Source: an uncultured Candidatus Saccharibacteria bacterium (GTDB taxonomy: Bacteria > Patescibacteriota > Minisyncoccia > Phycocordibacterales > CAIZLB01). From it: a DNA stretch of 64,000 nucleotides. The stretch is taken from positions 503,931 through 567,930 of the forward strand of contig CAZKAF010000001.1 in assembly GCA_964550955.1 (NCBI GenBank), given 5' to 3'. Position numbers and translations under genes: made by a program. Shown one piece after another: positions 4,842-57,782 of this stretch; position 1 is the first letter of the stretch; each line of letters begins with the position of its first letter. The notes under the pieces are model-generated. The model did not search any database. It saw only the letters and a list, made by a program, of their open reading frames with translations, and was not told the origin of the DNA.

Positions 4842-4925
4842 TTTGACCGGTACAGTCACCTGATGCGCCTACGCGCAAAAGAGGCTTACAACCGAATAAG
4901 AAACAACAACAAGAGGAACTGACAC

Positions 4926-5936: not shown

Positions 5937-6035
5937 CTTATTTTTAAGGCAGGGCTCATCAATACAACTCAAGATACGGAGCTCGGCTGCGCAAGCCAGT
6001 AGAATGAATTTTAGATAATGATATACTAACACCAT

Positions 6036-7407: not shown

Positions 7408-7553
7408 ACACGGTTTTATTCGATGGTTGGGGGGGGTGGAAAGAACATTCCGCCTTCAGGGAATCTGAAAACGGCAGGTAATCTTATACCATGCAAAAAA
7501 CAAAAAAGCGAGAGTTCTTGCGAATCCCGCGAATGCCCTAGCTTTTTGCCGGC

Positions 7554-9101
7554 CTACTTGCCGGCGATGCCGCCTCCCATCTCTTCAAGCAGATCTCCGA
7601 GTTCCTTGTATCGCGGAACGACGGTCTGGCCTTGAATCATCCAGAATACGCTCGGATTAAATTCCTGAATGAATTCATAGTCATGGCTCACGAGGAGGAT
7701 GGTGCTCTTGGACTGCTTGCAGGCGAAAAGCAGGACTTCCCAGGTGACTTCGTCGATATGGTTCGTCGGCTCGTCGAGTATCAGGAAATCCGGATTGGCG
7801 CCGAACACCAGCGCGAACCTGAGGCGCATCCGCTCTCCGCCCGAAAGCCCCTCGATGGGCGTATTCATTTTCTTAAGATCGAAACGCATGGCCCCGAGCG
7901 CCGCCCGCGCCTCGACTTCGAAGCAGTTCAGCTTCTCCATCACGATCTCGACGGGCTTGGCATTCGCGCTGAACTTCATGTGCTGATCGAAATACGCCCA
8001 TTTGACTCCGTCAGCCCAAGTCACGCTTCCCGTCGTGAAATCATGCTCGCCCGTCAGGCATTTCAGGAACGATGACTTCCCCGCCCCGTTTCTTCCGAGC
8101 AGGGTTATGTGCGCGCCGGTTCGAACTTCCAGGTTCACGTCCCTGAACAGGTCCCTGCCTTCGCCCTTGTATCTGAACGCGCCGTCCTTGACGCGGCAAA
8201 GCAGCTTTCCTCCATGGAGGCCGGACGTTCCCTGCGAAAGCTTTATGGTCGTCTTCTTGTCATCAGGCCGCGCATTTTCCTTATGATCCTTCTTGAGCGC
8301 ATCCAATTCCGCCTTCTTTTTCTGGTACGCGGATATTTCCTTTCCCCTAATGGCCTTTTGCCTCAGGATGACGACCGACGCCTCAAGCTGCTTTATGCGC
8401 TTCGTTTCCGTATCGTATGCGCGCTGCATGCCTCCGATTCTCGCCATCTTGTCCTCGATGTAGTCGTCATAGTTCCCCTCGGACACATGTATCTCACCTC
8501 GGGCAAGCTCCGCGACCTTGGTCGCGATGGAGTCGATAAGGAGCCTGTCATGGGAAATGAAGATGAGGCCGCCCCGGAACTCGTTCAGCATCCGGATAAG
8601 CACCACTCGGCTGACGATGTCTATGTGATTTTCCGGCTCGTCAAGAAGCAGGAAGTCGGGACTGGAAGCGAAAGCGGTGGCGAGGGCCAGGATTTTCTGC
8701 TGGCCGCCGGAAAAGGATCCGCAGAGCGAATCATGAGAACGCTCAGCGTCGAAGCCGAGCTCCCTGGCAATCGAGTACGCCTTCTTCGCAAGGTTCGCGC
8801 TCGCCTCCTTTTCGATGTACTGATCGACAGTCAGCGACATGGACGCATGCGGAAACTCCTGAGGAACGTACACGGAGCGAATGTGCCCCGTCTTTTCTAT
8901 GGTTCCGGACATGACCCCGAGATCGGCCTCCGAGTCGGGAGTGATCTGCTCGACGATAATCTTAAGCAGCGTTGACTTCCCCGCCCCGTTCTCCCCGAGA
9001 ATGCAAAGGCTCTCATTATCCGCGCATTTGAGCGACACGTTGGTAAATATGGACCTGTCGCCATATTCGTATGCGATATTTTTTAAGCTGATTATCTTCA
9101 T
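7554..9101 (-). CDS. ABC-F family ATPase (two NBDs, ribosome-associated translation-factor type)
   Basis: Two Walker A motifs (GENGAGKST and GRNGAGKSS), two LSGG signature motifs, and a charged ~80-aa inter-domain linker. True start is probably the ATG at 9101 (MKIISLKNIAYEY). ORF-track start at 9539 is over-extended across a divergent promoter region. Confidence 0.85.
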   Translation of the reverse strand: MKIISLKNIAYEYGDRSIFTNVSLKCADNESLCILGENGAGKSTLLKIIVEQITPDSEADLGVMSGTIEKTGHIRSVYVPQEFPHASMSLTVDQYIEKEASANLAKKAYSIARELGFDAERSHDSLCGSFSGGQQKILALATAFASSPDFLLLDEPENHIDIVSRVVLIRMLNEFRGGLIFISHDRLLIDSIATKVAELARGEIHVSEGNYDDYIEDKMARIGGMQRAYDTETKRIKQLEASVVILRQKAIRGKEISAYQKKKAELDALKKDHKENARPDDKKTTIKLSQGTSGLHGGKLLCRVKDGAFRYKGEGRDLFRDVNLEVRTGAHITLLGRNGAGKSSFLKCLTGEHDFTTGSVTWADGVKWAYFDQHMKFSANAKPVEIVMEKLNCFEVEARAALGAMRFDLKKMNTPIEGLSGGERMRLRFALVFGANPDFLILDEPTNHIDEVTWEVLLFACKQSKSTILLVSHDYEFIQEFNPSVFWMIQGQTVVPRYKELGDLLEEMGGGIAGK

Positions 9102-25891: not shown

Positions 25892-26255
25892 GACCATCTC
25901 TCTTGTTGCGGGTCGTGGAATTGCACCACGTCTATAAGGTTATGCGTACTTCTACAGTTTTCACTGCGCCTGTCTCTCGACAGACTTTGGAGTCTGGACT
26001 ATACCTTCATCTGGAGAACGAATTCTCCAGAGTCCACCGTCTAGTCTCTACACCTTCATGAACATAAATGTTCAAGCTTGGCTCGGTATTGCCATGCGAT
26101 TAAGCAAAGGTTTCACCGAATTTGATGGATGTTTTCCATACAACATCGCTGTCGTATGAGCCCTATTGAGCCTCATGTGCTACTGTTACACTTACCCGCT
26201 ATATTGCACCCTGTGAGTATAATACAAAATCGGAATCGTGCAAGCTTTTCCGGCG

Positions 26256-45288: not shown

Positions 45289-45381
45289 GGAGACGTGTCG
45301 GAGTGGTCTAACGTGCCTCTTTGCTAAAGAGGTGTACCCCCTAAAAGGGTACCGAGGGTTCGAATCCCTCCGTCTCCGCCA
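45289..45381 (+). tRNA. tRNA-Ser (anticodon GCT), class II, CCA encoded
   Basis: GGAGACG...CCTCT-TTGCTAA-AGAGG, long variable arm GTACCCCCTAAAAGGGTAC, T-arm GAGGGTTCGAATCCCTC, acceptor CGTCTCC, G73, CCA. Confidence 0.8.
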
Positions 45382-45443
45382 TGGCTGTGCAGGATATCTG
45401 CAGAGCGGATATCCAAGCAGACATGTGTTGCGGGAGCATGTGT

Positions 45444-45472
45444 GGGATCGTACCCATCCCTCCGTCTCCGCA
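45444..45472 (+). repeat. tRNA-3'-end mimic element (GGGATCGTACCCATCCC + copy of tRNA-Ser(GCT) acceptor 3' strand)
   Basis: 16 nt (ATCCCTCCGTCTCCGC) are identical to the 3' end of the tRNA 65 nt upstream. The 17-nt motif is shared with loci at 51302 and 57522. Confidence 0.6.
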
Positions 45473-45538
45473 CCAAGAACTTAGTATCGGAGTGTGGACC
45501 GAGTACCTTAATCCTTGTATTTAGGCTAAGATTGCTAT

Positions 45539-45976
45539 GTGATAATACAAAGCTGGAAAATAAAATTAATCCTTCCGATAATCTACTTTGTCGCCACGAT
45601 AACAGTATTTTACCTGATTGGTATAACTAATAATTTTGATTTCAGCGGAATACAAACAGCAGGAATCATGATTTCTGTAGTTTCTTTCATACTTTGGATT
45701 GTATCCCGTATTCAGCTTGCAAATTCTTTCTCTGTCGCTCCTAAGGCTACCGAATTAGTTAGTTCCGGTATCTATTCCAAGATCCGTCACCCGGTCTATG
45801 TTTTTTCTTTTTTAGCAGTTTTAGGGATTTTTCTTTTCCTGCAGAATTGGATTCTATTTCTGTTACTTATCCCTCTGATTATTTTGCAGATTTTTAGAAT
45901 ACGCAAAGAGGATAAAATTCTCGTCAAGGAATTTGGAGATACATACACTCAATATCAGCGTAATACTTGGTTTTAG
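45539..45976 (+). CDS. ICMT/PEMT-family membrane methyltransferase (isoprenylcysteine carboxyl methyltransferase-like)
   Basis: Four TM helices and the C-terminal IRHPVY...E motif typical of ICMT/phospholipid methyltransferases. Lies in an AT-rich islet next to tRNA-Ser. Confidence 0.65.
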   Translation: MIIQSWKIKLILPIIYFVATITVFYLIGITNNFDFSGIQTAGIMISVVSFILWIVSRIQLANSFSVAPKATELVSSGIYSKIRHPVYVFSFLAVLGIFLFLQNWILFLLLIPLIILQIFRIRKEDKILVKEFGDTYTQYQRNTWF

Positions 45977-46240
45977 GTATGACCCGCACACCTCATTTCA
46001 ATTCCCAAATCGACTCGATATTTTCTATTTTTCTTAATTCTATTCGTCCCATCTTTTTTTGATTGCCTTCAAGGAGAGTTCTAATCCGAACATAGGCCTT
46101 TATACATTGTCAGCGTCCCTAATCATTCCATTGATCACGATTCCTTTATATCGAAGAAAAAATATCCCCGTTAATCCCTCCTTCGGCCAAGGCAGCGAAC
46201 ACGCGTGCGGCCGTGGCAAATTGTGATGTATACTATTCGC

Positions 46241-47182
46241 ATGAAAACACAAAAGGGATTCATGATCCCACTTTTGATAATTATAACTGCCGGATTATTA
46301 ATTGGCGGCGGCAGCCTGTACGTGATGAGTAAAAATTCAGAGCCGGCAAAGAATGTCACTGGCATAGAAAACCAGATAGATTCCTCCGTGACCGAAACGA
46401 CTGCTGTCCAGGCTGATGATGAGCCAAGCGTGTCGGCGTCGATTAATGCGACAGTCGGCGTCGATGCTGACATCCAAGCGGTTTCTAACCTTATGCAAAG
46501 GTACAAGACGGCTTTCGAGAACGAAGATGCGACAACGGTGAAATCTCTCTTCTCCAAAGCGACTCTCGATTTATTCACCCAACTGGGCGGTGGTTTTTCC
46601 CTGCCGTCCGGATCAAAGATTACCATCGGAAGCATTACACGTTCAGGAAATAATATACGAGCAGAGGCGGTCGAGACGAGAAAGAATGGAGCGAAAGAGA
46701 CCCAGACATATATTTTCATATCGGAAAATGGTCAATGGAAAATCGACATGAACGCGTCGCTTGAGTCGGACATTCAGAAAAATGATGCTTCGCAAAGCGA
46801 TCAGAACGGATACGTTGACTTGGTCGTTACCGGAATCAAGGTTCATCCTTCGCGTCCGATAGTGAACGATGAAAACGTTGAGATCGCAGTGACCATTAAG
46901 AATATCGGGACTAAGAGTTCGGAGAAAGGAGCGCCTGCCATCGCTACAATTCTAGAAAATACAGAATATACCCCGACGCAGGGAGGATCGCTTGCTCCGC
47001 TCGGAGCCGGACAGTCCGTCACTTGGACATACCGACCTTATGGCCAAAACAAATTTTTCAATCGGACTGATGCCGCAGGAAAAAAGACAGTGAGCATAGA
47101 ACTGAACATCCTCAAGGAGGTCGCGGAAAAGAATTACGACAACAACGTCTTTACCCAGAGCATCGAGATATTTGCGCAATAG
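46241..47182 (+). CDS. Membrane-anchored secreted protein with NTF2-like N-domain and CARDB-like C-domain
   Basis: MKTQKGFMIPLLIIITAGLL anchor. C-terminal VDLVVTGIKVHP...VEIAVTIKNIGT resembles CARDB. Confidence 0.55.
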   Translation: MKTQKGFMIPLLIIITAGLLIGGGSLYVMSKNSEPAKNVTGIENQIDSSVTETTAVQADDEPSVSASINATVGVDADIQAVSNLMQRYKTAFENEDATTVKSLFSKATLDLFTQLGGGFSLPSGSKITIGSITRSGNNIRAEAVETRKNGAKETQTYIFISENGQWKIDMNASLESDIQKNDASQSDQNGYVDLVVTGIKVHPSRPIVNDENVEIAVTIKNIGTKSSEKGAPAIATILENTEYTPTQGGSLAPLGAGQSVTWTYRPYGQNKFFNRTDAAGKKTVSIELNILKEVAEKNYDNNVFTQSIEIFAQ

Positions 47183-47231
47183 ACGCCAAGGCCATTGTGC
47201 CAAAACAAGCGGCATGCGGACGCGAGAAGAA

Positions 47232-47267
47232 AAAAGCCCCTGGGTTTCCCAGGGGCTTTGCTTTTTC
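47232..47267 (+). terminator. Rho-independent terminator
   Basis: AAGCCCCTGGG-TTTC-CCAGGGGCTT followed by TGCTTTTT. Confidence 0.65.
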
Positions 47268-47283
47268 AGCGGTTGAAATAAAA

Positions 47284-47313
47284 GGGCCGGCGGATATGCA
47301 TATCCGCCGGCCC
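47284..47313 (-). terminator. Perfect 13-bp palindromic hairpin, terminator for asd
   Basis: GGGCCGGCGGATA-TGCA-TATCCGCCGGCCC, followed on the minus strand by TTTATTT. Confidence 0.6.
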
Positions 47314-47321
47314 TAACAGAC

Positions 47322-48314
47322 CTAGATGAGCCGTTCGGCAATCTGGATTGCGTTCTGAGCCGCGCCTTTCCAGATATTGTCGCCCGAGCACCAGAGGGCG
47401 AGTCCTTTCTCGACGCTTTGATCCTTGCGGATTCTTCCGACCAGAACATCGAATTGGCCCGATGCGCTGATTGACATCGGATACATTGAATTCGCAGGAT
47501 CATCAACGACTCGCACGCCGGGCGAGCATTCGAGGATTTTCCTTGCTTCGGCTGGATCAAGCGATTGCTCGAACTCGACGTTCATCGCAATGCTGTGTCC
47601 GTTGAAGACGGGTACCCGCACGCAGGTATTCGAGATCCGAATCGCGGGATCGCCGAGAATCTTATGCGTCTCGCGACGCATCTTGATCTCCTCGGTACTC
47701 TCCCCCGACTCATCCTTGAATGAGCCCACGCAAGGAATCACGTTGAACGCTATCTGGTGCGGATACACTTCGGCCGACAGCGGCCGGCCCTCCGCCCAGG
47801 CTTTGCCTTGGGCTTCAAGTTCCGAAACGGCTGAAGCGCCGGTTCCGGAAACCGCCTGATACGTGCTTGCGACGATTCTCTTGATTCTCGCCGCCTGATG
47901 AAGAGGGGCGAGAGGCATCAAGGCGATGATGGTGCTGCAATTCGGATTGGCGATGAATCCCTGATGGCCCTTGAGCGCCGACGCGTTGATTTCAGGGACG
48001 ACGAGCGGAATCCGTTCGTCCATCCTGAAATCGTCGCCGTTATCGATCACTATGCATCCCCTTTTCACCGCTTCCCAGCCGAGAGTCTGCGAGGCGCCTT
48101 TCGAGCCCTCCGTTCCCGCAAAGAAAGCGATGTCGATGCCCTCGAACGACTCGGGACTTGCGACTCGCACCTCGTAAGGCTTTCCGTCGATGACTTCGGT
48201 CCGTTCGGAACGGGCCAGGATGACTATCGAACTGAATGGGAATTTCCTCTTTACGAGCAGGCGTACCAGCTCGGTACCGACTGCCCCGACTCCGACTATT
48301 GCTACTTTTTTCAT
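47322..48314 (-). CDS. asd: Aspartate-semialdehyde dehydrogenase
   Basis: NAD(P) Rossmann VAIVGVGAVG. Catalytic Cys in IANPNCSTI and a conserved His (HSIAMNVEFEQ) in the dimerisation domain. Confidence 0.9.
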   Translation of the reverse strand: MKKVAIVGVGAVGTELVRLLVKRKFPFSSIVILARSERTEVIDGKPYEVRVASPESFEGIDIAFFAGTEGSKGASQTLGWEAVKRGCIVIDNGDDFRMDERIPLVVPEINASALKGHQGFIANPNCSTIIALMPLAPLHQAARIKRIVASTYQAVSGTGASAVSELEAQGKAWAEGRPLSAEVYPHQIAFNVIPCVGSFKDESGESTEEIKMRRETHKILGDPAIRISNTCVRVPVFNGHSIAMNVEFEQSLDPAEARKILECSPGVRVVDDPANSMYPMSISASGQFDVLVGRIRKDQSVEKGLALWCSGDNIWKGAAQNAIQIAERLI

Positions 48315-48451
48315 AGAACTTTCTCCTGGATGGTTAGTTGTTTGTCTGGCATGAAAGTACCAGACTTTTTAAAAAATGTCTAATATTTCAGCCCGACTTG
48401 AGCGGCCCGTCCATCTTTCAGAAATCTGCATTTAAGTTAAAATTAGCCTGC

Positions 48452-49192
48452 ATGAAAATAATCACTTTAAATGCATGGGGCGGAAAAATCAAAGACCTCC
48501 TGATTTCATTCATCGATTCGCACAGGGACCGAATCGACATCTTTTGCTTCCAGGAGGTATACCATGCAGCGGCAAAAGACTTCGGAGGCTTCGACGACGT
48601 TCATCTCGACTTGTTCAATGAGATGCAATCCCTGCTGCCTGATCATGACGGCTATTTCTGCCCGACAGTGGATAATTGCTATGGAATAGCCACGTTTATC
48701 AGGAAAAGTTTCAGCGTAAAGGCGTCCGGGGACATTACGATTCATGACAATCCTCATTATGACGGAAAAGGCGGAAATCATTCGCGAAAAGCCTTGTGGC
48801 ACGATATAAATCTGGGAGACAAGCGGCTTTCCCTGCTAAATGTCCACGGATTGTGGAATGGAAAAGGAAAAACAGATACTCCGGAACGGATCGACCAGTC
48901 AAAAAGAATCAGAGGCTTCATGGATTCCGTTAAAGGTTCCCAGATAGTGTGCGGAGATTTCAATCTTCTTCCAGAAACAGAATCCCTTTCCATATTGTCG
49001 GAAGGAATGCAGGACTTGGTAGATATGAGCGGCGTAACCTCTACAAGGACTTCTTTTTACACGCGAGCGGAAACGTCCGGAAAATTCGCAGATTACATCT
49101 TCGCATCTCCTGAAATAAAAGTGATTGATTTCAGGGTTCTCCCCGACGAGGTCTCGGACCATGCGGCCCTTTTCGCGGAAATCGACTTGTAA
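48452..49192 (+). CDS. Endonuclease/exonuclease/phosphatase (EEP) family protein
   Basis: ITLNAWGG...FCFQEV...NVHGLW...VCGDFN...SDHAAL conserved EEP catalytic motifs. ATG at 48452. Confidence 0.7.
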   Translation: MKIITLNAWGGKIKDLLISFIDSHRDRIDIFCFQEVYHAAAKDFGGFDDVHLDLFNEMQSLLPDHDGYFCPTVDNCYGIATFIRKSFSVKASGDITIHDNPHYDGKGGNHSRKALWHDINLGDKRLSLLNVHGLWNGKGKTDTPERIDQSKRIRGFMDSVKGSQIVCGDFNLLPETESLSILSEGMQDLVDMSGVTSTRTSFYTRAETSGKFADYIFASPEIKVIDFRVLPDEVSDHAALFAEIDL

Positions 49193-49255
49193 AATCCGAA
49201 CGAGGCAAGAACGCCATCCTGAAAGATATCAAGAAAAGAAACATTAAGATAAGCC

Positions 49256-49954
49256 ATGAATCATTCATCGCATAGCTGGGCAGTCACTCCAAAGGAGGCA
49301 ATAGAAATACAAAAGCGGCTTCGCGAGGAGGTGAGGCTCGTTCGCCTGACCAAGCCCGTCGAATACATCGGAGGGGCTGATGTCAGCATGAATTTATTTT
49401 CAAAATTCGGCTTTGCCGGATTCGTGACGCTCTCATTCAAAAGCCTGGCTGTCGTGGATCATGCAGTAGTTAAAGATGACATAAAGTTTCCGTACATTCC
49501 CGGACTGCTTTCGTTCAGGGAAATTCCAATGCTCCTGAAGGCATGGAAACGCCTGAAGACGAAGCCCGACGTCATCATCGTGGACGGCGTCGGCATAGCG
49601 CATCCGCGGAGGCTCGGCATCGCCACGCACCTCGGGCTCATTCTCGGCGTACCGACCATCGGCTGCTCCAAGAATCTTCTCATGGGCACGTACGAAGAAC
49701 CGCGAAACGAGCCCGGATCCTTATCGCGCATCTACGACAAATTTAACAAAGACGAGATCATCGGCGCGGCGCTCCGGACGAAAAGGAACGTGAAGCCGGT
49801 ATTCGTATCCCCCGGACATCTCATCACGCTTGAGGAATCCATAGGCATCGTCAAGAAGTCCGTCATGAAGCACAGGCTGCCCGAGCCGACGCGCCAGGCC
49901 CACGACGCGGTCAACGAATGCAGGGTTGCGGCAAAGGCGGACGGGCAAGTATGA
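49256..49954 (+). CDS. nfi: Endonuclease V
   Basis: GGADVS, YIPGLLSFRE, VDGVGIAHPRRLGIATHLG motifs. Confidence 0.85.
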   Translation: MNHSSHSWAVTPKEAIEIQKRLREEVRLVRLTKPVEYIGGADVSMNLFSKFGFAGFVTLSFKSLAVVDHAVVKDDIKFPYIPGLLSFREIPMLLKAWKRLKTKPDVIIVDGVGIAHPRRLGIATHLGLILGVPTIGCSKNLLMGTYEEPRNEPGSLSRIYDKFNKDEIIGAALRTKRNVKPVFVSPGHLITLEESIGIVKKSVMKHRLPEPTRQAHDAVNECRVAAKADGQV

Positions 49955-49966
49955 TAAAATGACAGC

Positions 49967-50584
49967 ATGAAAAACATATTGAAAATTTTGCTCGCGGCGG
50001 CAGTTCTTCTCGGACTGGCGATACTCGCGTACGAGAGGGCGCAGGCGCCGGATTTGACGACGCCCGCAGACAGCGCGCCGTCATCCTCGATTACCCCGTA
50101 TTTTGACGACAGCATATCATTCGCATACAAGTCCGGACCGGACGGATACACGCTGTCGGTCAAGGGAGACGAGCTTCAGGAATATCAGGAATTCATCAAG
50201 AGCATCGTCCTCATGAATACGAGGGAATATGAAGAGCTGCTCAAAAGCGATTTCCCGAGAAGCGGACCGCCGGCCATCTCCATCACGATTCTGGAAAGCG
50301 GAGCGGAAACCTCTCCCCGCGCCTGGGTGCAGGGCAACCCATTCTGGTCGCTGTTAGGAACCAGAGGATCTGAAATGACCGAGATTACCGTCGACGGAAT
50401 CCGCGCAGTTCAATATCAGGCGGACGGCCTCTACCCTTCCGACATGATTGCCGTCATACATGAAGGGAGAGCATACCTCATGTCAGGCTCATACAATGAC
50501 CCTTCGGATGCCATGCGAGACGACTTCAATTCGCTCGTGGATTCCGTCAGGTTCGCGGGCGCCGAAACAGGATCCGACGAATAG
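49967..50584 (+). CDS. Hypothetical secreted protein
   Basis: Signal peptide MKNILKILLAAAVLLGLAILA. No family. Confidence 0.45.
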   Translation: MKNILKILLAAAVLLGLAILAYERAQAPDLTTPADSAPSSSITPYFDDSISFAYKSGPDGYTLSVKGDELQEYQEFIKSIVLMNTREYEELLKSDFPRSGPPAISITILESGAETSPRAWVQGNPFWSLLGTRGSEMTEITVDGIRAVQYQADGLYPSDMIAVIHEGRAYLMSGSYNDPSDAMRDDFNSLVDSVRFAGAETGSDE

Positions 50585-50656
50585 CCGGCAACAGGGCAAA
50601 TTGCGCCCCGAACGGCTCGCTTGACATACTCTCACTAACAACCTAAATTTTAAGAA

Positions 50657-51037
50657 ATGAAAAAACGACCAATACTCATCTCGCTGCTTTGCATCGTCAT
50701 CAGCCTCGGCACATTCGGAATCCTCTACGGGCTCATGTCCGGAACATTCCCGTCTACGAACGGAGAGACCATTCCTGAATGGTTTATCAAGCTCACGGTC
50801 GTCCTGTCCTTCGTATATCTCCTCTCCATCGGATATCTTTGGAAAATGCAGAAGCGCGGCGTCGAGCTCTACATCTTCACCACGCTCATCGCGGACGTTT
50901 CGGCAGTCAGCGTCGGCTTCGGATCATTGTCCGAATTCATCGTGCCCGTCATATTCATCATAATCATGCTGTCCGAATACAAGAACATGTCGGGGCCGAG
51001 CCTCATTCCCAAGAAAATCGCGGAACGAAAGCTGTAA
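50657..51037 (+). CDS. Hypothetical small membrane protein
   Basis: 3-4 TM helices. No family. Confidence 0.4.
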   Translation: MKKRPILISLLCIVISLGTFGILYGLMSGTFPSTNGETIPEWFIKLTVVLSFVYLLSIGYLWKMQKRGVELYIFTTLIADVSAVSVGFGSLSEFIVPVIFIIIMLSEYKNMSGPSLIPKKIAERKL

Positions 51038-51160
51038 ATGCCATCGCGCGGCCGGACGCTTCGGGCGCCTGATCGGCGAGGCGGGACCTGAAGCCGTTTT
51101 CTTTCAACTGCGCGATTCTTTGTAAAAGAATAATTTTGGGTTAGTATGGCGTACACGCAT

Positions 51161-51249
51161 GGAGGCGTGGATGAGTGGTTTAAATCAACGGTTTACTAAA
51201 CCGTCGTTCCCTAACAGGAACCGTGGGTTCGAATCCCACTGCCTCCGCA
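51161..51249 (+). tRNA. Class II (Ser-type, G73) tRNA with apparent anticodon ACT
   Basis: GGAGGCG...ACGGT-TTACTAA-ACCGT, long variable arm GTTCC-CTAACA-GGAAC, T-arm GTGGGTTCGAATCCCAC, acceptor TGCCTCC, G73, CA. Anticodon reading needs tRNAscan-SE/ARAGORN confirmation. Confidence 0.6.
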
Positions 51250-51301
51250 TTGACAGTACGAACCAGCTTCAGCTGGTAAGTGCTGGTAACTTTCGGATAG
51301 C

Positions 51302-51330
51302 GGGATTGCACCCATCCCACTGCCTCCGCA
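51302..51330 (+). repeat. tRNA-3'-end mimic element (GGGATTGCACCCATCCC + copy of upstream tRNA acceptor 3' strand)
   Basis: 17 nt (ATCCCACTGCCTCCGCA) are identical to the 3' end of the tRNA 55 nt upstream. Confidence 0.6.
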
Positions 51331-51420
51331 GAAAACTTTTTATCGGAGTGACCTGAATACCAATCGATAAAGAGTAACCTGAAAACCTGACGCCGCAATC
51401 GCCCAATGGGAAATACATTA

Positions 51421-51452
51421 AAAAAACCGCCATCACTTTGCAATGATGGCGG
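51421..51452 (-). terminator. Rho-independent terminator for the 51502-52125 gene
   Basis: Minus strand reads CCGCCATCA-loop-TGATGGCGG followed by TTTTTTT. Confidence 0.6.
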
Positions 51453-51501
51453 ATTCTCAAAAGAGGTTTCTAACTTCTGCGTAGCGGCAGCCGACTGTCA
51501 G

Positions 51502-52125
51502 TTACGCGCAGGCATCGAAGACGGCCTTCTCGACCTTCACCCTTTCGGCAAGGCTGCTCAAAGTTTTAAGCTTTTCTTCAGTGCTGGTGTGCCAATATTC
51601 AATCAATGCCCCAATTTCGCTCCACAATTCCTCCCTTAAAGGAGATGCGGCCAATGCATTGATGTTTGAGGGAATAATTTCGATTGGCTGCAGTTCGAAA
51701 AACCTGGTCACCATGCTCCCTGAGTCGCAACACGCAGGATCTTCATTTTTTCTCAAATCAGCACAGACCGTCGCGGTGACCCACTGTTTTTTCCTCGTAA
51801 ATCCCCACAAGGACATGGATACCGTCTGACCAATCTTGAGGTCTTTATACATCTCTGATGTGTCCATGACGAAGATACCGCTAGTCGTGCTGCCGAACCT
51901 TGCCGCTTTAGCCCACTTATCTTTGTCGTCTTCGAGACGTCTGTGATACGGACCATGACTCTTCGACCAGTATGAGGGATATCGTATCCCGCCAATCTTA
52001 TCCAAGGTCATTGAATCAAGAAGAGGGCTGATCATTTCGATACGGTCCCCGATGAGTTTTTTCCATTCTGCTGGCGTGGTCGGCTTGCGAACGCCGAACA
52101 TTTTGACTGTACTTACTGTCTTCAT
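51502..52125 (-). CDS. Hypothetical protein (207 aa) in islet next to the class-II tRNA
   Basis: ATG at 52125, terminator downstream. No recognisable family. Lower-GC context. Confidence 0.5.
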   Translation of the reverse strand: MKTVSTVKMFGVRKPTTPAEWKKLIGDRIEMISPLLDSMTLDKIGGIRYPSYWSKSHGPYHRRLEDDKDKWAKAARFGSTTSGIFVMDTSEMYKDLKIGQTVSMSLWGFTRKKQWVTATVCADLRKNEDPACCDSGSMVTRFFELQPIEIIPSNINALAASPLREELWSEIGALIEYWHTSTEEKLKTLSSLAERVKVEKAVFDACA

Positions 52126-52518
52126 GTGCTTACTCCTGTGTTGTAGGGCGAACCCTGGTTTTGTATGTGCGATTTATTCGAAAGGCGAGCCTCTCGACCT
52201 GAGAATAGTAATATACTGTTTATTGCCCCGTGTCAACAATCATTGTTTGCCCATTTTAACCCCGGCCCGCATACCTCGCCTCGGCTTCCAAAAATCTGCT
52301 AAAATATCTTTTTGAGCTCTCTTATCGGCACCCGCTTGTGCGGACCAATGTTGATGCCGAGAAGGAATGCGCCATCAAGCTTGAAATCCGGAGCTCACGC
52401 GCCCATGAAACGCCCATAATCAGGGGCCGAGGGCAATATAGAAATTCCCTGCATGCATGCTAAAATTATTTGAGCATTATCATTATATTGCGCACACTTA
52501 TCATTCACATCAATCAAC

Positions 52519-52749
52519 ATGATCACGTACATCGGACTCGGACTCATCATAATCGCCTGGGGCATATACGTCCTCGGAATTCATAACGCCCGCCGGCTTT
52601 TCCCGGCCGTTTACGCCTTGGGAGTCTTGCTGCTCGTGGCAGAAGGGCTCCGAATCGGACCGGATGCCGCGACATGGCTCAACCTGATCGTGCTCGTTCT
52701 TGTCATTGCGGCAATTATCAAGTCCAGCTGGAAATCGACGTCAGCTTAA
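52519..52749 (+). CDS. Hypothetical small 2-TM membrane protein
   Basis: 76 aa, hydrophobic. Weak support. Confidence 0.35.
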   Translation: MITYIGLGLIIIAWGIYVLGIHNARRLFPAVYALGVLLLVAEGLRIGPDAATWLNLIVLVLVIAAIIKSSWKSTSA

Positions 52750-52770
52750 CCAATTAACCGAACAAAACTC

Positions 52771-53358
52771 ATGGCTCCGAAACCTTTCATCACGGAGGCG
52801 ACCTCCGTAACGGACGAGCTCCTCAACGTCATCGCTCATTTGCCCACGGCAAGCCTCTCCGTCACGGTCGAAAATGGCTTCTTCAGGAAATTGACTGACG
52901 CTCACTTCATGCGCATCGCCGTGTCGTTGGCGAGGAAGGGCTACGACGAAGGCGGCTGCCCCATCGGAGGCGTCATCATAGATAATGAGACTCGTCAGAT
53001 TGTCGGCAAAGGCCACAACACGCTCGTGCAGGAAAGCCATCCGTACAATCACGGGGAGACGTCGGCCATCCGCGATGCCGGTCGCAAGGATTTCAGCAGG
53101 ATGACCATCTTCACCACGCTCAGCCCGTGCGATGTCTGCGCGGCACTGATATACATGCGTCAATTCAGCAGAGTAGTGGTCGGAGACGTTACCAATGCTT
53201 CGGGAAATGAAAGCATGCTCAGGGACAAAGGCGTGCGAGTCGATGTCCTGGAAGATGCCGCGGGCGCAGAGCTGTACGCCAGATACCGCAAAGAAAAGCC
53301 GGAGCTCGACCTTGAAGACTGGAAAGGCCTGGCCGCGGTCAAGCAGCAAAATCCATGA
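52771..53358 (+). CDS. CDA-fold cytosine/guanine deaminase (yeast Fcy1-like)
   Basis: GGCPIGGVII, HGETSAI (HxE zinc motif), SPCDVC (PCxxC). Alignable with yeast cytosine deaminase. Start uncertain: ATG at 52771 or 52909. Confidence 0.7.
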   Translation: MAPKPFITEATSVTDELLNVIAHLPTASLSVTVENGFFRKLTDAHFMRIAVSLARKGYDEGGCPIGGVIIDNETRQIVGKGHNTLVQESHPYNHGETSAIRDAGRKDFSRMTIFTTLSPCDVCAALIYMRQFSRVVVGDVTNASGNESMLRDKGVRVDVLEDAAGAELYARYRKEKPELDLEDWKGLAAVKQQNP

Positions 53359-53867
53359 GATATCTCGCGCACGTGGAAGAAGGACAAGGAATCAAGTGGA
53401 TGCAAGAGGCCGCTCAAGTCGCCGGCGAAGCCCTCTGCCTTAAGGCAAAATGCGGAACCGTCATCGTCAAGGACGGCGAGATAATCGGCCGCGGATACAA
53501 TGCTCCCCCGCTCGACAACATCGAAGGCCGAAGATGCCTCGACGCGTATGATTTCTCCGGAAAGCCGAGGTACGACCATACCTGCTGCATGCATGCGGAA
53601 TGGAGGGCCATCATGGACGCGCTGAGAAATAATTCAGAAAAGATACAAGGCTCTCAGCTTTATTTCACCAGGGTCGATGATGAAGGAAACATCAAGAAGT
53701 CCGGCGACCCGTTCTGCACCGTATGCAGCAGATTCGCATTGGATGCGGGCATCGCGGAATTCATGCTTTGGAATGACACGGGAATCTGTTCCTACCCTAC
53801 TGACGAATACAACAAGCTGTCTTACGCGTACAGGCATCCAAAGGAGGAGGAGGCGAAGCGGATTTAG
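53355..53867 (+). CDS. CDA-fold dCMP-deaminase-like (ComEB/dCD family) zinc deaminase
   Basis: CCMHAEWRAIMDA (C/HAE zinc motif) and PFCTVCSRFA (PCxxC). Start ATG overlaps the upstream stop (ATGA). Confidence 0.7.
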   Translation: MRYLAHVEEGQGIKWMQEAAQVAGEALCLKAKCGTVIVKDGEIIGRGYNAPPLDNIEGRRCLDAYDFSGKPRYDHTCCMHAEWRAIMDALRNNSEKIQGSQLYFTRVDDEGNIKKSGDPFCTVCSRFALDAGIAEFMLWNDTGICSYPTDEYNKLSYAYRHPKEEEAKRI

Positions 53868-54002
53868 TTGGGAACCTAAGGAGGAGCCCGGAGCTTGAAA
53901 GCAACGAGGGCTTATGGCTTAAGATTAAGCCCCTTTCGGGGGGATGTTTGATGGCACCCGCTTGCGTCCTGAGACGCGCCCGGCCTTTTAGATTTATTCG
54001 AG

Positions 54003-54028
54003 AGTGATATAGCATTTTTGCGATATCA
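54003..54028. repeat. Palindrome GTGATATAGCATTTTTGCGATATCAC (copy C)
   Basis: One mismatch in the arms. In the convergent intergenic region. Confidence 0.55.
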
Positions 54029-54097
54029 CCACCATATCACTCAAGGAAAGTTTTAGATTTAGAGCTTGCTTGAGCTCGCTTGATTCCAAGCGGATTT

Positions 54098-54460
54098 TTA
54101 TCCAGACACGTTTTCATGCTGGTCGGGCGTCCAGGGCGGAGTGCTGATTACGTAAAGCTTCACGTAATCCTGCGGAATCCAGCAATATGGCCTGTCTGTC
54201 TGCACGAGAACGGTCGAGCCCTCAGGCAACCGAACCTCTTCCCCTTCGCATTGAAATGTCGCGGAACCCTCAAGAATCCTGACGATCATTTCGGACTTTT
54301 TGTTGAGCGCGAATCCGCTTTCAGGATATCTGCCCGTCAGGCTGATTTCAGCCGCGTTCGCCGCCTCAGTAGGCAGCTCGATATCGACAGCCGAAAACCC
54401 CTCTTTCGCTCGATCAGCTTGGGCGTCCGGCGATATATTTGGCAATGAATAATGAATCAT
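54098..54460 (-). CDS. Cupin-domain protein
   Basis: Two-motif cupin signature (G...Y...E...G, then P.G..H). 120 aa. Confidence 0.55.
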   Translation of the reverse strand: MIHYSLPNISPDAQADRAKEGFSAVDIELPTEAANAAEISLTGRYPESGFALNKKSEMIVRILEGSATFQCEGEEVRLPEGSTVLVQTDRPYCWIPQDYVKLYVISTPPWTPDQHENVSG

Positions 54461-54537
54461 GGTTTTATTTTCACCCTATCGGCGCATTAAAGCAAGCGAA
54501 GGAATCGGCACCGCCGCCCCGTCTGCGAAGCTCGCAA

Positions 54538-55284
54538 TCACGCGCATTCATGTGATGCATTTTTAAAGCGCTCATCCAATACTTCAAAATCATCCCTGAG
54601 CCTGAAGAGCAGGCCATCGGTCTTGTCTATAATTTCCTTTACGGTGTTCATGATTTTAACCATGTCCTTTTCATTCCTTTTGCTTTGAATGTCCTTGTCC
54701 ACATATACATAAAACCTGTTGCCGCCGAATTCGATTGAAAAATTAGTGGATATTTCCTGTATGGAAGCAAGCAAAGGCTCGGTAAATATCTGCAAAGCCT
54801 CTATTTCGTAATCCTCAGGACAATACAAATCAAAATCTTTCAGATATCCTTCCTCTATGGAAATTTTCCTGTCGTTCTTCTCCGCTTTTTGATACAGGAA
54901 CATTTTTTTGCTTTTGAGCAGAATATGCGGGAATTCAGTTTTACCAAACTCAGAGCTACCGACGGTGAAGTTTCTTATCGAGTAGCGCGCATAAAAGCTC
55001 TTCGTGAAAATGACAAAGTCATGATCATTGTGACTGCCATTAAAGACGCCGGAGGTCTTGACCGTTTTCTCATATTTAAACAGCCGGGACCTGAAGCTTC
55101 TCATCAAATCGATCTGCTGATTCTTGGAATAGACAAGGTTGTATTTCTTGGCCAAATTATCATAAAACTCATTCTTTCTTTTTTGAATGACTCCCACGAG
55201 AATGCTCACAAGCATTGCGATAAGCAGAGCGGGAACGAATGGCAGAAAAGGTTCTATTGCGAACTCGAATAGTTTGTTTTTCAT
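54538..55284 (-). CDS. Hypothetical membrane-anchored protein (AT-rich gene)
   Basis: N-terminal TM, Lys/Asn-rich, low GC. No family. Confidence 0.45.
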   Translation of the reverse strand: MKNKLFEFAIEPFLPFVPALLIAMLVSILVGVIQKRKNEFYDNLAKKYNLVYSKNQQIDLMRSFRSRLFKYEKTVKTSGVFNGSHNDHDFVIFTKSFYARYSIRNFTVGSSEFGKTEFPHILLKSKKMFLYQKAEKNDRKISIEEGYLKDFDLYCPEDYEIEALQIFTEPLLASIQEISTNFSIEFGGNRFYVYVDKDIQSKRNEKDMVKIMNTVKEIIDKTDGLLFRLRDDFEVLDERFKNASHECA

Positions 55285-55311
55285 TTGTTGAAATTATACC
55301 ATCGCCGACTA

Positions 55312-57264
55312 CTACCAGCTCCCTCCCCCTCCTCCACCGCCGCCGCCTCCGGAAGATCCGCCCCCACCGCTGCCGCTGCTTGGCATGGCAGTCATGGAAG
55401 AACTTGCATGCGAGCTGAAATCGGACAAGGCGCTGCTCAAGACCGCGGCATTGAACGCGCTGCCCGAAGGACCCGAGTACCAGGACGGCTGGACGAGATA
55501 CATGTCCTCAAACTCCTTTGCCCAGATAGCCGATACGCCAAGCACCATGGCGTAAGGCAAGAGCCTTTCGAAGACTTCCGGCCTCTTCTCCGGCGCATTG
55601 TGGAACTCAAGCCGGTCTTTTTCGGCAATCTGCAGATATTCCTTGAGGCCGAGCAGGTGCTCCTTCGCGGCCACGCCTTTTTCAGTTTTTGAAGGATTGA
55701 ATTTCGAGATGATTCCGTAGATGACGACGGACAGGAAGATGCCTCCGATAAGCGGAAAGGGATTGACTCTCAGCACGAAAATGCTTATCAGCGTTCCGAA
55801 CACGCCGGCCAGCCACAAGCCGACAAGGGCAATGAGCAAGGTCCTGAAAGAGCCGTCGCCCGCCTCTTTCATTCTCCCGAGATTTCTGTAATAGCCCTTG
55901 CTGACCAAGGCGTCCAGCACCGAAGACTTTATCAGGGCAACGTCGGAATAAAACGCATACTTCAGGTCAGAGAGCTTGACCGAAGCGCCGCCGGATTTGA
56001 AAATGGCGGACAAGAGCTTGCGGTCAAATTCATTTGGAAGGTCCGAGAAATCCCCGAGCTTCACGATTTCATAATCGACGAACGGATTGCCGGCCTTGCT
56101 CGCCCGGGTCAGGATCTTTTGCACCTCGAACTGGGACTTCTTGATTGCCGCCGAAACATCCGCGAGTATCTCCTGATGCGCCTCAATCTGATTGATTCTT
56201 ATGTATCCGCGAACGGCCAAATATATGAGCTCGGCGGAAATATTGTTCTCGCCCACTTTCTCATGAGCGATGCCGTCCGCCTCCATGGGAGTCAGCCCGT
56301 CGATGACATCATATTGCGGGACAATGACGCCCGTGCCCTTGGGATCCCTCCCGTGCCTCCGCCAATGCCGAAAGCTCAGCGCGAACGTGGCAATCGGCAA
56401 AAGCATGGCCAGAATCCAGGACAGATACATGCCGAGAAATTGCCATGCATTCTCAGCGGCCGTATACGGAATGACAGCCCCTTTTTGAAATCCGAGCGCC
56501 ACGGTAAGTCCTTCCCCCGCGTCGAGAGAGGCCGGAGTCCTGAACAGATAGACCGCCTTGGACATGCCGACGCCCTCTCCAGCATTCTCGACCGACAGCT
56601 GGCATCTTTCCCTGCTCTTTGCCGGGCCGAAATAGCAGGCATTCTGAACGACCTCCGCGCCCGCGGGCAGCGTGACATATGCTTCCGCGTGCAGAATTGG
56701 CATGGACCATTCGTTCCCCGTAACATTCCAGTATATTTCGTCGATTTCCTGGAGCTGAGCCACGGCATTTGTCGCCTTGTAGCTGATTACATATGTCTTC
56801 TGACCGCTGAACGTAGTTTCCGGATCCCCGATCTTAAGCCGGAACTCTCTGCCGACACGGGATGTCGTGTATTGATATTCATTTCCCGATTCGTCCGTAA
56901 CCAAAACATTCTCTATGGACATCCTCCTTCCTTCTGAAGAATACGGATTGATGTCCCTGTATATGCCGTGCCGAGAAATCGGACCAGTCGAATATTGAAT
57001 GATTTCAGTAACATCTACCGAATTGTCCGCGTTCACGCTTATGAACGCGGAATAGCTTGCGATGGATTCGGCAGCTGATCCTGGAGCGGGCTCCCGTGCA
57101 GCCGCGAGATCCGAATCAGAACCAGGACCGGAATCCGGCCCGGGAACCTGTACTTGTTCCTGCCCTGGCCCCTGCGCCGCCGCGGCATTGAAAATCCCAA
57201 AAACCGAAAACAGAATTCCGAGAGAGACCACGACCGAAATCAGGCTGAAAGCGGCTTTTTTCAT
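55312..57264 (-). CDS. DUF2207-family membrane protein with Gly-rich C-terminal tail
   Basis: Signal/TM, large extracytoplasmic domain, three TM helices, cytoplasmic domain, and a terminal GGGGSSGGGGGGGGGGSW. ATG at 57264 (MKKAAFSLISVV). ORF-track start at 57426 would overlap tRNA-Ser. Confidence 0.65.
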   Translation of the reverse strand: MKKAAFSLISVVVSLGILFSVFGIFNAAAAQGPGQEQVQVPGPDSGPGSDSDLAAAREPAPGSAAESIASYSAFISVNADNSVDVTEIIQYSTGPISRHGIYRDINPYSSEGRRMSIENVLVTDESGNEYQYTTSRVGREFRLKIGDPETTFSGQKTYVISYKATNAVAQLQEIDEIYWNVTGNEWSMPILHAEAYVTLPAGAEVVQNACYFGPAKSRERCQLSVENAGEGVGMSKAVYLFRTPASLDAGEGLTVALGFQKGAVIPYTAAENAWQFLGMYLSWILAMLLPIATFALSFRHWRRHGRDPKGTGVIVPQYDVIDGLTPMEADGIAHEKVGENNISAELIYLAVRGYIRINQIEAHQEILADVSAAIKKSQFEVQKILTRASKAGNPFVDYEIVKLGDFSDLPNEFDRKLLSAIFKSGGASVKLSDLKYAFYSDVALIKSSVLDALVSKGYYRNLGRMKEAGDGSFRTLLIALVGLWLAGVFGTLISIFVLRVNPFPLIGGIFLSVVIYGIISKFNPSKTEKGVAAKEHLLGLKEYLQIAEKDRLEFHNAPEKRPEVFERLLPYAMVLGVSAIWAKEFEDMYLVQPSWYSGPSGSAFNAAVLSSALSDFSSHASSSMTAMPSSGSGGGGSSGGGGGGGGGGSW

Positions 57265-57378
57265 ATGAGTATTCGTTATAGGGCTCAATCTGAAACAATA
57301 TGCCCAAATCATGCCCGGATATTGCTTATGGACATGATAGCACATAAGAAAACGCCGATGTGATATACTGCAAAACCA

Positions 57379-57467
57379 TGGAGAGATGGCAGAGCGGTCG
57401 AATGTACCACCTTGGAAAGGTGGCATGGGAGCAATCCCATCGGGGGTTCGAATCCCCCTCTCTCCGC
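57379..57467 (+). tRNA. tRNA-Ser (anticodon GGA), class II
   Basis: GGAGAGA...CCACC-TTGGAAA-GGTGG, variable arm ATGGGAGCAATCCCAT, T-arm GGGGGTTCGAATCCCCC, acceptor TCTCTCC, G73, CA. Confidence 0.8.
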
Positions 57468-57521
57468 ATGACCTGTCCGAATTCTGTCGAAGACAGAATA
57501 AGGCAGGGCAATTGCGATGGC

Positions 57522-57550
57522 GGGATCGTACCCATCCCCCTCTCTCCGCC
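57522..57550 (+). repeat. tRNA-3'-end mimic element (GGGATCGTACCCATCCC + copy of tRNA-Ser(GGA) acceptor 3' strand)
   Basis: 16 nt (ATCCCCCTCTCTCCGC) are identical to the 3' end of the tRNA 57 nt upstream. A third degenerate copy lies at 57610-57638 (gggattgcaagcatctccatctctctgcc). Confidence 0.6.
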
Positions 57551-57782
57551 CATAAAAGAAAAACCGCCCTTCCGGACGGCCTTCCTTTTATGCGGTCGGA
57601 AAAATGTGCGGGATTGCAAGCATCTCCATCTCTCTGCCCCCCCCATGGTAAGGGCTTAAGTAAGTCCGGAAAAAATCTGCCTCCTCTTCACCGCATCTTC
57701 ATGCCTCCTCTTTTAAAATGAAAGTGCTACAATTAGCCTGATTCGGTCATGATTATCAGCCCATAGCCAAAAACGTAATTTT

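Follow-up and report, generated by a model that had tools for sequence, protein, structure and literature searches.

The stretch analysed here, 64,000 nucleotides of contig CAZKAF010000001.1 (the whole of it is referred to as the window), carries three serine tRNA (tRNA-Ser) genes, each of which is followed by a folded unit that ends in an exact copy of the 3′-end of the very tRNA in front of it. As judged from comparison with related genomes, the unit is an insertion bounded by the duplicated tRNA tail, since at empty sites of relatives the tRNA joins straight to the trailer that elsewhere follows the downstream copy. The units are here tentatively read as miniature, cargo-less, non-autonomous integrative modules with the logic of left and right attachment sites (attL/attR) at tRNA-Ser genes, acted on in trans. 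tRNA genes are classic landing sites of mobile DNA, and the known players are kilobase-sized and have their own integrase. In the present case a lineage of the Candidate Phyla Radiation (CPR), with a genome of probably less than 1 Mb, retains gene-less folded modules of 90-200 bp at several tRNA-Ser genes; these modules are more conserved than nearby genes, yet they are gained, lost and stacked among relatives. The host is, to judge by its genes, a CPR bacterium, because the closest homologues of the genes neighbouring the units carry the annotation Candidatus Paceibacterota or Taylorbacteria.

ARAGORN and Rfam were used for tRNA calls and gave six tRNAs in the window. Three of them, all on the + strand, are tRNA-Ser genes with the anticodons GCT, ACT and GGA, which confirms the genes named in a preliminary description of this DNA; the tRNA at 51161, there called a class-II tRNA, is indeed a tRNA and more exactly tRNA-Ser(ACT). 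Between each tRNA-Ser gene and its trailer lies a non-coding, structured module of about 85-95 bp, here called A-type, in which a two-tier hairpin, a spacer, a constant hairpin (GGGAU-YGYACCC-AUCCC) and the exact copy of the tRNA tail follow each other in this order (Table 1). The tail of the tRNA gene itself is referred to as the proximal copy and the one at the end of the unit as the distal copy.

Table 1. Positions of the tRNA-Ser genes, of the parts of the units and of related sequence features; positions refer to the window unless a related contig (L048 to L146) is named.
Feature	Position	Strand	Remarks
tRNA-Ser(GCT)	45289..45381	+	CCA encoded; nt 59-74 (45364-45379) are the proximal copy
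Two-tier hairpin hpGCT	45385..45420	+	Outer stem, internal loop, 10-bp inner stem; z = -4.0; L048 and L146 orthologues with compensatory changes
Spacer, GCT locus	45421..45443	+	Contains GCGGGAG, the complement of ..CUCCGC in either the tRNA 3′-end or the copy
Constant hairpin motif, GCT locus	45444..45460	+	GGGATCGTACCCATCCC
Distal copy, GCT locus	45456..45471	+	Exact copy of tRNA-Ser(GCT) nt 59-74
Trailer module B, GCT locus	45473..45508	+	..ACTTAGTATCGGAGTG..GACCGAGTACCT; imperfect palindrome; directly behind the tRNA in L130 and L138
tRNA-Ser(ACT)	51161..51248	+	Proximal copy 51233-51249
Two-tier hairpin hpACT	51254..51285	+	z = -5.2; three pairs changed on both sides between the L146 copies
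Spacer, ACT locus	51286..51301	+	..CGGAUAGC; pairs weakly with the acceptor 3′ strand
Constant hairpin motif, ACT locus	51302..51318	+	GGGATTGCACCCATCCC
Distal copy, ACT locus	51314..51330	+	Exact 17-nt copy of the tRNA-Ser(ACT) 3′-end
Trailer module B, ACT locus	51331..51361	+	..TTTTTATCGGAGTGACCTGAATACC
tRNA-Ser(GGA)	57380..57467	+	Proximal copy 57452-57467
Two-tier hairpin hpGGA	57472..57507	+	z = -5.0
Spacer, GGA locus	57508..57521	+	GCAATTGCGATGGC
Constant hairpin motif, GGA locus	57522..57538	+	GGGATCGTACCCATCCC
Distal copy, GGA locus	57534..57549	+	Exact copy of tRNA-Ser(GGA) nt 59-74
Second, decayed tandem unit, GGA locus	57551..57638	+	Hairpin 57551-57592, then degenerate motif and copy 57610-57638 (GGGATTGCAAGCATCTCCATCTCTCTGCC)
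Loop triplet of the constant hairpin	45449-45451, 51307-51309, 57527-57529, 57615-57617		Also in relatives
tRNA-Ser(ACT), window and relatives	Window 51161-51248; L136 12657-12744; L137 3378-3467; L146 6831-6918
Module B sites	Window 45473-45508, 51331-51361; L130 10936-10970; L137 ~7400-7440, 6385-6425; L138 ~8900-8960
Motif X	L048 ~975-1000 (-); L137 ~7600-7625, 6655-6680 (-); L146 ~5975-6000 (-)

In the two-tier hairpin, the outer stem measures 4-6 bp and the inner stem 6-10 bp; an internal loop of 2-3 nt per side is located between the two, and the hairpin loop has 3-4 nt. The three hairpins of the window cannot be aligned by sequence and have only this architecture in common, and all of them fold far better than shuffled sequences (z values between -4.0 and -5.2). 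A role as terminator of the tRNA gene was considered and rejected, as no U-tract follows the hairpin and the terminator scan predicted no + strand terminator between tRNA and unit; a terminator-like appearance is confined to the first hairpin of the related contig L137. The spacer comprises 14-23 nt and is partly complementary to ..CUCCGC, so that it can pair either with the 3′ strand of the tRNA itself, by which the hairpin is extended, or with the distal copy, by which a weak acceptor-like stem of 4-7 imperfect pairs is formed. The downstream unit had been taken for a tRNA mimic without a 5′ half; the copy unit is real, and the missing half is in part provided by this spacer, a degenerate 5′-acceptor-like strand. 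In the constant hairpin, 5 bp (GGGAU/AUCCC) enclose a 7-nt loop YGYACCC, which is not a T-loop (UUCRANY), and the last five bases of the motif are at the same time the start of the exact copy of positions 59-74 of the local tRNA (ATCCC..CCGC). Both ends of the unit thereby have subterminal hairpins, the two-tier hairpin 3-6 nt from the left junction and the constant hairpin 11 nt from the right end. In the loop of the constant hairpin, bases one to three read either CGU or UGC in seven out of seven cases and are never mixed. The triplet switches between orthologous units, the CGU form creating GATC and GTAC sites and the UGC form TGCA, and a search for a partner of the triplet found none.

The 17-mer of the constant hairpin motif (GGGATYGYACCCATCCC) is present exactly at the three loci, with no fourth exact site in the window. 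When up to three mismatches were allowed, six matches were obtained versus 0.48 expected, a number reached by none of 100 shuffles; one of the mismatched matches is the decayed copy at 57610. An exact 16-nt repeat inside 100 nt is expected by chance with a probability of about 2e-8 per locus. No tail copy was found by the repeat search at the Thr, Asp or Met tRNAs of the window, and a profile search with nhmmer for A-type units and for the C-type units described below gave nothing at these tRNAs in all sequence examined. The fusion of the motif to an exact copy of each tRNA's own tail and its absence from the other three tRNAs were therefore described correctly from the start. Two details had to be changed: the sequence shared behind the copies, TATCGGAGTG, is common to the first and second locus (45485 and 51341) and not to the first and third, and the degenerate extra copy at 57610-57638 belongs to the third locus and not to the second. 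Behind the copy, trailer module B is accordingly common to the GCT and ACT loci, and the GGA locus has instead a second hairpin and the decayed unit. The units are not an assembly artefact, which had been named as a possible refutation, because the same sequences are present in independent Logan assemblies of two sequencing runs (L001 and L002).

For comparison, tRNA-Ser loci were gathered from relatives via PilM and its neighbour gene, resulting in 14 loci from 9 related genomes. Among these, L075 was later extended as L146 and represents a pond metagenome-assembled genome (MAG), and L048 and L130 are contigs of the Paceibacterota MAG SMAG_U3656. Six of the 14 loci are filled, seven are empty, and in one the unit is displaced from the tRNA. 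In L130 and L138 the tRNA-Ser(GCT) gene runs directly into module B (..CCGCCA followed by AGAGAACTAAGTATCGGAGTGACCCGAGTACC), which in the window comes after the distal copy, and L136, L140, L141 and L145 are likewise empty. The tRNA-Ser(GCT) and tRNA-Ser(ACT) genes of L136 are identical to those of L146, yet they have no units, and the trailer of tRNA-Ser(ACT) in L136 matches the sequence behind the distal copy in L146. At all three loci of the window direct repeats of the 3′ part of the tRNA bound the inserted DNA and an intact tRNA stands at one end, as in tRNA-integrating elements. In the displaced case, tRNA and module B are followed in L130 by an island that encodes HamA and a large serine recombinase, and L048 has the order ParB-methylase region, partial B, motif X (GGTACTTAACCCACATGGCCCGCCA) and complete A-type unit of the GCT kind, which does not adjoin a tRNA. 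L048 was rejected as the orthologous downstream region of the window because no genes are shared.

Units are also found in tandem, as at the third locus of the window, in L146 and in three C-type units of L137. The array of L146 consists of tRNA-Ser(ACT), hairpin, C-type body and copy, followed by hairpin, A-type part and copy, and includes a junction of copy and hairpin, which is the only hint, and an indirect one, of excised or circular forms; in this array the repeat reaches 63 nt with the trailer hairpin included, so that tRNA tail and trailer hairpin were doubled as one block. Distal copies of the relatives are partly degenerate (1 mismatch or small inserts), and a decayed copy is present, for example, in L146 (5923-5802). 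The distal copy also follows the substitutions of tRNA-Ser(ACT) between the window and L146. By hand count, the A-type unit of the GCT kind shows about 85% identity between window and L048. For the flanking pilus operon the identity of the window to L130, which belongs to the same MAG as L048, is 78%. In total about 12 units were seen, all of them compact and of the same architecture, and none with a gene. A tail duplication starting at the T-loop together with empty sites, stacking and decay is the textbook footprint of integration into tRNA genes.

In the relatives a second module of about 150 nt, here called C-type, is present, in which a hairpin is followed by a body, a small hairpin (GA-NNNN-GUA-NNNN-UC) and the copied tRNA tail, which begins at position 53-55. 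The copy thus comprises 20-24 nt, in comparison to 16 nt in the A-type. The same C-type body is located at tRNA-Ser(GCT) in L137 and at tRNA-Ser(ACT) in L146, and its end is the tail of the local tRNA each time. L137 has three C-type units (C1 to C3), two of which (C2 and C3) are located behind X motifs, and L146 has decayed C-type copies; the extra copies in both contigs were detected by the nhmmer profile search. Between C2 and C3 the identity amounts to about 97% over the stretch that starts with the first base after X and reaches up to the copy, and their upstream flanks are far more diverged.

The folds of both module types are conserved by compensatory changes, in agreement with the folding and covariation proposed as a check in the preliminary description. 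The C-type body folds with z values of -5.2 and -8.5. In an alignment of only three sequences, one of which provided the structure, 92.7% of the cells pair and 12 pairs are changed on both sides. Shuffles give 4.5 such pairs and in no case out of 500 as many as 12, and slid partners give 0-2. Four of the six pairs of the small hairpin are fully compensated. For the A-type, three pairs of the hpACT copies in L146 are changed on both sides, and hpGCT shows one change from G-C to A-U between L146 and the window. About 10 G.U pairs versus 3 A.C mismatches were counted on the tRNA strand, an excess which points to folding of this strand, be it as RNA or as single-stranded DNA. The predicted fold of C1 is tRNA-like, with a perfect 7-bp acceptor stem identical to that of tRNA-Ser(GCT), a hairpin in the position of the variable arm, a T stem extended to 9-11 bp and two hairpins in place of the T-loop, followed by G73 and an encoded CCA; the copy ends with GCCA although the tRNA gene of this locus has no encoded CCA. 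C2 and C3 have no acceptor stem of their own; in both, the 5′ strand (GCGGGAC) is paired instead with GUCCCGC or GGCCCGC of the X in front. As a general rule, the 5′ strand of a unit is complementary to the tRNA-like 3′-end that precedes it, whatever that is, and the junction is therefore located inside a long hairpin.

Database searches were performed for described relatives of the units and for enzymes that could act on them. With Rfam, at gathering as well as permissive (E<=10) thresholds, only tRNAs and noise were obtained for the units of the window and the C-type region. A scan of 185,579 reference genomes for the 17-nt motif gave matches of which, among those listed (at least 117 loci), nearly all are chance matches in coding DNA, and only L048 and L075 are true relatives. 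A stricter pattern (motif, seven free bases and CCGC) gave one chance match in the JGI metagenomes. When viral contigs were searched with the motif, with X, with the C-type body and with B, chance matches or nothing resulted, and blastn against phages with the unit-plus-trailer stretch and with the X-plus-C-type region gave no match. Larger relatives with the hairpin or the motif at their ends were not found among the listed reference-genome matches, with the stricter pattern in metagenomes, in viral contigs or in phages, and no described equivalent of the units was found in Rfam or in the literature searched. The units contain no open reading frame (ORF). In none of the sequence examined was a tyrosine recombinase found, nor a TnpA/TnpB domain in any gene list or an IntI-type integrase in any locus list. 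The only recombinases seen are large serine recombinases in L130 and L138/L139, which appear to be tied to the separate palindromic B site.

In the favoured reading, the insert would enter at the T-loop/3′-end of the tRNA gene, at position 58/59, and bring a replacement 3′-end together with the trailer hairpin, which would then form the proximal copy, while the original 3′-end would be pushed downstream and become the distal copy. The proximal copy is thus probably the element-borne one. An enzyme encoded elsewhere would move or copy the modules in trans and would act on the folded ends, that is, on the two-tier hairpin extending the helix with the 3′ strand of the tRNA and on the GGGAU/AUCCC hairpin abutting the copy, and these folded ends would be the parts under selection. 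Units might cycle in and out, so that the two copies take turns as the functional tRNA tail, which would explain why both follow the tRNA-Ser(ACT) substitutions that separate the window from L146. We infer from this pattern that the modules are mobile now or were so recently. Because they are without genes, they are read as non-autonomous elements, similar in spirit to cis-mobilizable elements (CIMEs) or miniature inverted-repeat transposable elements (MITEs).

Several observations weigh against such modules. The type of hairpin goes with the type of tRNA in L146 as well as in the window. This suggests vertical inheritance, and in that case the exact tracking of the tRNA-Ser(ACT) substitutions by the copies would need repeated excision and re-entry, conversion or selection. 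Only 60-75 bp lie between the A-type repeats, a length at or below that which known tyrosine recombinases can excise as double-stranded circles. A classic crossover in the T-loop was rejected, as the T-loop TTCGAAT of attL differs from the loop YGYACCC of the constant hairpin. The compensated helices and the G.U pairs favouring the tRNA strand are easier to reconcile with a folded RNA or single strand than with a duplex site bound by protein. Moreover, no integrase, transposase, TnpB/IscB, IS110 recombinase or reverse transcriptase was found in the units, in about 40 ORFs of the window or in about 15 related loci, and no circular or full-length autonomous relative was found.

The main rival explanation, which is possible but rather doubtful, is a co-transcribed structured RNA, either part of the tRNA-Ser precursor or a small RNA freed by RNase P/RNase Z, that mimics the acceptor/T-arm of its own tRNA. 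Such an RNA might be a trailer competing for acceptor strands, a decoy or substrate of tRNA-Ser-specific enzymes or an alternative 3′ strand giving a tRNA with a T-loop insertion, and its copy would be held identical by selection. The unit is always found on the tRNA strand right after the tRNA with no predicted terminator in between, its helices are compensated with G.U pairs on the sense strand, C1 has its tRNA-like fold, the unit is more conserved than neighbouring coding DNA and the distal copy follows the tRNA-Ser(ACT) changes, all in favour of an RNA. Half of the related tRNA-Ser loci, however, are without a unit, which is hence dispensable, and the decayed copies in the window and L146 point in the same direction. 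The acceptor-like stem is poor in the A-type units of the ACT and GGA loci and absent in C2 and C3, the loop is not a T-loop and no Rfam family matches, and the tandem stacking, the change of position in L048 and the sharp borders between near-identical copies look like those of an element. An unlikely alternative is a transposon-like or retro-copied element, similar to MITEs or short interspersed nuclear elements (SINEs), that inserts at tRNA-Ser 3′-ends by staggered cuts or target-primed synthesis, with the copy of 16-22 nt as target-site duplication. This would account for copies that equal the local tRNA even with the same body at different tRNAs, for the dependence of copy length on module type and for an A-type boundary exactly after A58, the position at which reverse transcriptase stops on tRNAs modified with 1-methyladenosine (m1A58); the GCCA end of C1 also fits. 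It is opposed by the lack of terminal inverted repeats (the unit ends are ATGGCTG.. and ..GTACCC), by the fact that neither a transposase nor a reverse transcriptase was seen, by a CCA that is absent or irregular after the copies and by C-type copies that run through A58. The 63-nt repeat of L146 would be too long for a staggered cut, and the elements are not dispersed but found only behind tRNA-Ser-like ends. A specific retro/primer-binding-site model, in which nt 59-76 including CCA are copied up to A58, was rejected; the 58/59 border holds for the A-type, but CCA is not consistently copied and C-type copies reach nt 53-55.

Quite unlikely is an origin as decayed tandem duplicates of tRNA-Ser, that is, pseudo-tRNAs with internal deletions that are kept parent-like by gene conversion. 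The spacer in front of the motif is similar to positions 1-12 of the local tRNA (e.g. GAUGGC in tRNA-Ser(GGA) and its unit), C1 retains both acceptor strands and both T-stem strands, and tail and trailer hairpin were doubled as one block in L146, as expected for duplicates. On the other hand, the same non-tRNA motif GGGAUYGYACCC is present at three tRNAs and the same C-type body at tRNA-Ser(GCT) and tRNA-Ser(ACT), conversion of only 16 nt without left flanking homology is unlikely, and the unit of L048 is located away from the tRNA. The least probable explanation, and a very improbable one, are passive scars, that is, remnants of large integrated islands deleted independently at each tRNA. There is literature precedent for such remnants (PMC9897764), and the regions behind tRNA-Ser(GCT) are hypervariable, with defence-type cargo and serine recombinases. 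Yet independent deletions would not converge on one form in about 12 compact, cargo-less units, neutral remnants would neither stay about 85% identical nor keep their helices by compensatory changes, and cargo is located in the B site and not inside the units. Of the three options offered in the preliminary description, namely scars of a tyrosine-recombinase family, a miniature mobile element and a mimic RNA, the first is the weakest as worded. The logic of insertion and att duplication is supported by the empty sites, tandem stacks and degenerate distal copies; against passive scars of large elements speak the consistent lack of cargo in the units, a conservation above that of neighbouring genes and the compensatory changes in their helices. 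None of the three is proven and the range of ideas was right, so that the description is partly supported.

Partial tRNA copies, and stacks of them, beside tRNA genes are a known footprint of integrating elements (PMC9897764; bioRxiv 10.1101/2020.12.28.424599), and the tycheposon islands of Prochlorococcus are a precedent for tRNA integration (bioRxiv 10.1101/2020.12.28.424599). Like prophages, integrative and conjugative elements (ICEs), islands and tycheposons with attL/attR sites, the units have a complete tRNA and a partial distal 3′ copy in direct orientation, an identity block from the T-loop to the 3′-end, empty sites in relatives and stacks with decay of the older copies. Those elements are, however, 9-120 kb long with integrase and cargo, whereas the present units have 60-170 bp between the repeats and no genes, no integrase was found nearby, and the copy is adjoined by a conserved folded module with compensatory changes. 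CIMEs are decayed, gene-less derivatives of ICEs or integrative and mobilizable elements (IMEs) retaining attL and attR (PMC5704250); they resemble the units in the lack of recombination and transfer genes, in att repeats at tRNA 3′-ends and in tandem accretions. CIMEs are remnants of kilobase size that can be traced to identifiable ICEs. In contrast, the units are tiny, uniform and of conserved structure, they are present at three different tRNA-Ser isoacceptor genes, and no parent element was found. The Neisserial intergenic mosaic elements (NIMEs) are units of 50-150 bp between which lie dRS3 repeats, the attachment sites of phages; the NIMEs likewise form mosaic arrays of short non-coding modules that are split by one att-like repeat and vary in order and number between strains, but in the present units the repeat corresponds to the tail of the tRNA next to it and is a different one at each locus, and the modules are found only behind tRNA-Ser. 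With integron attC sites and miniature elements of the IS200/IS605 type (palindrome-associated transposable elements, PATEs) the units share a structure that is kept while the sequence drifts, hairpins at the ends, a bias to folding of one strand, small size and arrays; unlike here, those systems have no target duplication of 16-22 nt and no link to tRNA tails, and no IntI/attI or TnpA/TnpB was found. The units differ from MITEs and DNA transposons in the lack of terminal inverted repeats, in a duplication of 16-24 nt instead of 2-10 bp and in a motif found only behind tRNA-Ser. Among tRNA-like RNAs (the tRNA-like domain of tmRNA, YrlA, viral tRNA-like structures and mascRNA), the acceptor-plus-T-arm fold without anticodon arm recurs in C1, in a position open to RNase P/RNase Z. 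In contrast to these RNAs, the units have no Rfam match, no T-loop consensus in the A-type and no acceptor stem conserved across units, and their sequence is copied from the neighbouring tRNA instead of being an independent mimic.

The duplication logic is thus already known and the object is not, namely gene-less, structured tRNA-Ser modules of 90-200 bp with a constant hairpin fused to the copy and with a larger, covarying sister family, in a CPR lineage. It is conceivable, though somewhat improbable, that the A-type and C-type units are a new class of tRNA-linked structured nucleic acid that is functional in reduced CPR genomes. One possibility would be self-contained elements targeting tRNA-Ser via their own fold and the copy or complement of the tail; the other would be co-transcribed acceptor/T-arm mimic RNAs whose tail is kept by selection. 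If mobile, the units would be the smallest tRNA-targeting integrative units described and would point to an enzyme acting in trans; if RNAs, they would form a new tRNA-mimic family. Either way, the tRNA-Ser loci are marked as seeds of variable, defence-rich regions in these genomes, and the units would also account for the breaks of assemblies there. Downstream of tRNA-Ser(GCT) no genes are common between the relatives, and this hypervariable region contains defence-type cargo (Abi_C, HamA, HNH and methyltransferases) as well as serine recombinases. Several independent metagenome contigs of relatives from Logan (L131-L135, L147 and L129) end at or just before tRNA-Ser(GCT), which is consistent with strain-level variation or repeats there.

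The imperfect palindrome of trailer module B (TTAGTATCGG-AGTGAC-CCGAGTACCTAA) is split in relatives by insertions, by two ORFs in L137 and by a hairpin in L138. In SMAG_U3656 it is probably split by the island with the large serine recombinase and HamA, as concluded from the contigs L130 and L048. Partial repeats of GACCCRMGTACCT are found at both ends of the B insertions, and the cargo, comprising the two ORFs of L137, a methyltransferase and the serine-recombinase island of SMAG_U3656, is located in the B site and not within the A-type or C-type units. B looks like a second, separate attachment site. A single folded RNA reaching from B to X was rejected, as the folds are weak and not conserved, and B is better read as a palindromic insertion site. 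Motif X (GGTACTTAACCC....CCCGC(CA)) resembles a tRNA's T-arm and acceptor 3′-end, but no such tRNA is present nearby, and X always precedes a hairpin and an A-type or C-type unit. Additionally, a hairpin mini-insert of about 25 nt (TGAATCAG(C/A)AGATTCA(C/A)CTACTGG) is present twice in L075, at 4843-4868 and 7136-7160; one copy is located inside the A-type unit of the GCT kind between ATCCC and TCCGTCTCC, and the other in the trailer of tRNA-Ser(ACT).

The genes around the units are housekeeping genes and comprise a type IV pilus operon, asd, endonuclease V, recG and a ComF-like gene. The second tRNA-Ser retains its unusual anticodon ACT (A34) in four related genomes, where the gene adjoins tRNA-Ser(GCT), and the AGT codon is rare (52 versus 276 AGC). 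A reassignment of AGA tied to tRNA-Ser(ACU) was rejected, as AGA aligns with Arg or Lys in PilM homologues. Two adjacent genes for deaminases of the cytidine/deoxycytidylate type (52771-53358 and 53355-53867) are located 1.5 kb 3′ of tRNA-Ser(ACT), the first of which shows a weak likeness to TadA (51.8 bits versus a cut-off of 150). Finally, a tRNA with the anticodon CAT, not called by ARAGORN, is split on the - strand of the window (25905-26200) by a group I intron (Rfam RF00028, 55.2 bits, 25975-26178), which is located within the anticodon loop between the flanks GCGGGTAAGTGTAACAGTAGCACATGAGGCT and CATAACCTTATAGACGTGGTGCAATTCCACGACCCGCA.

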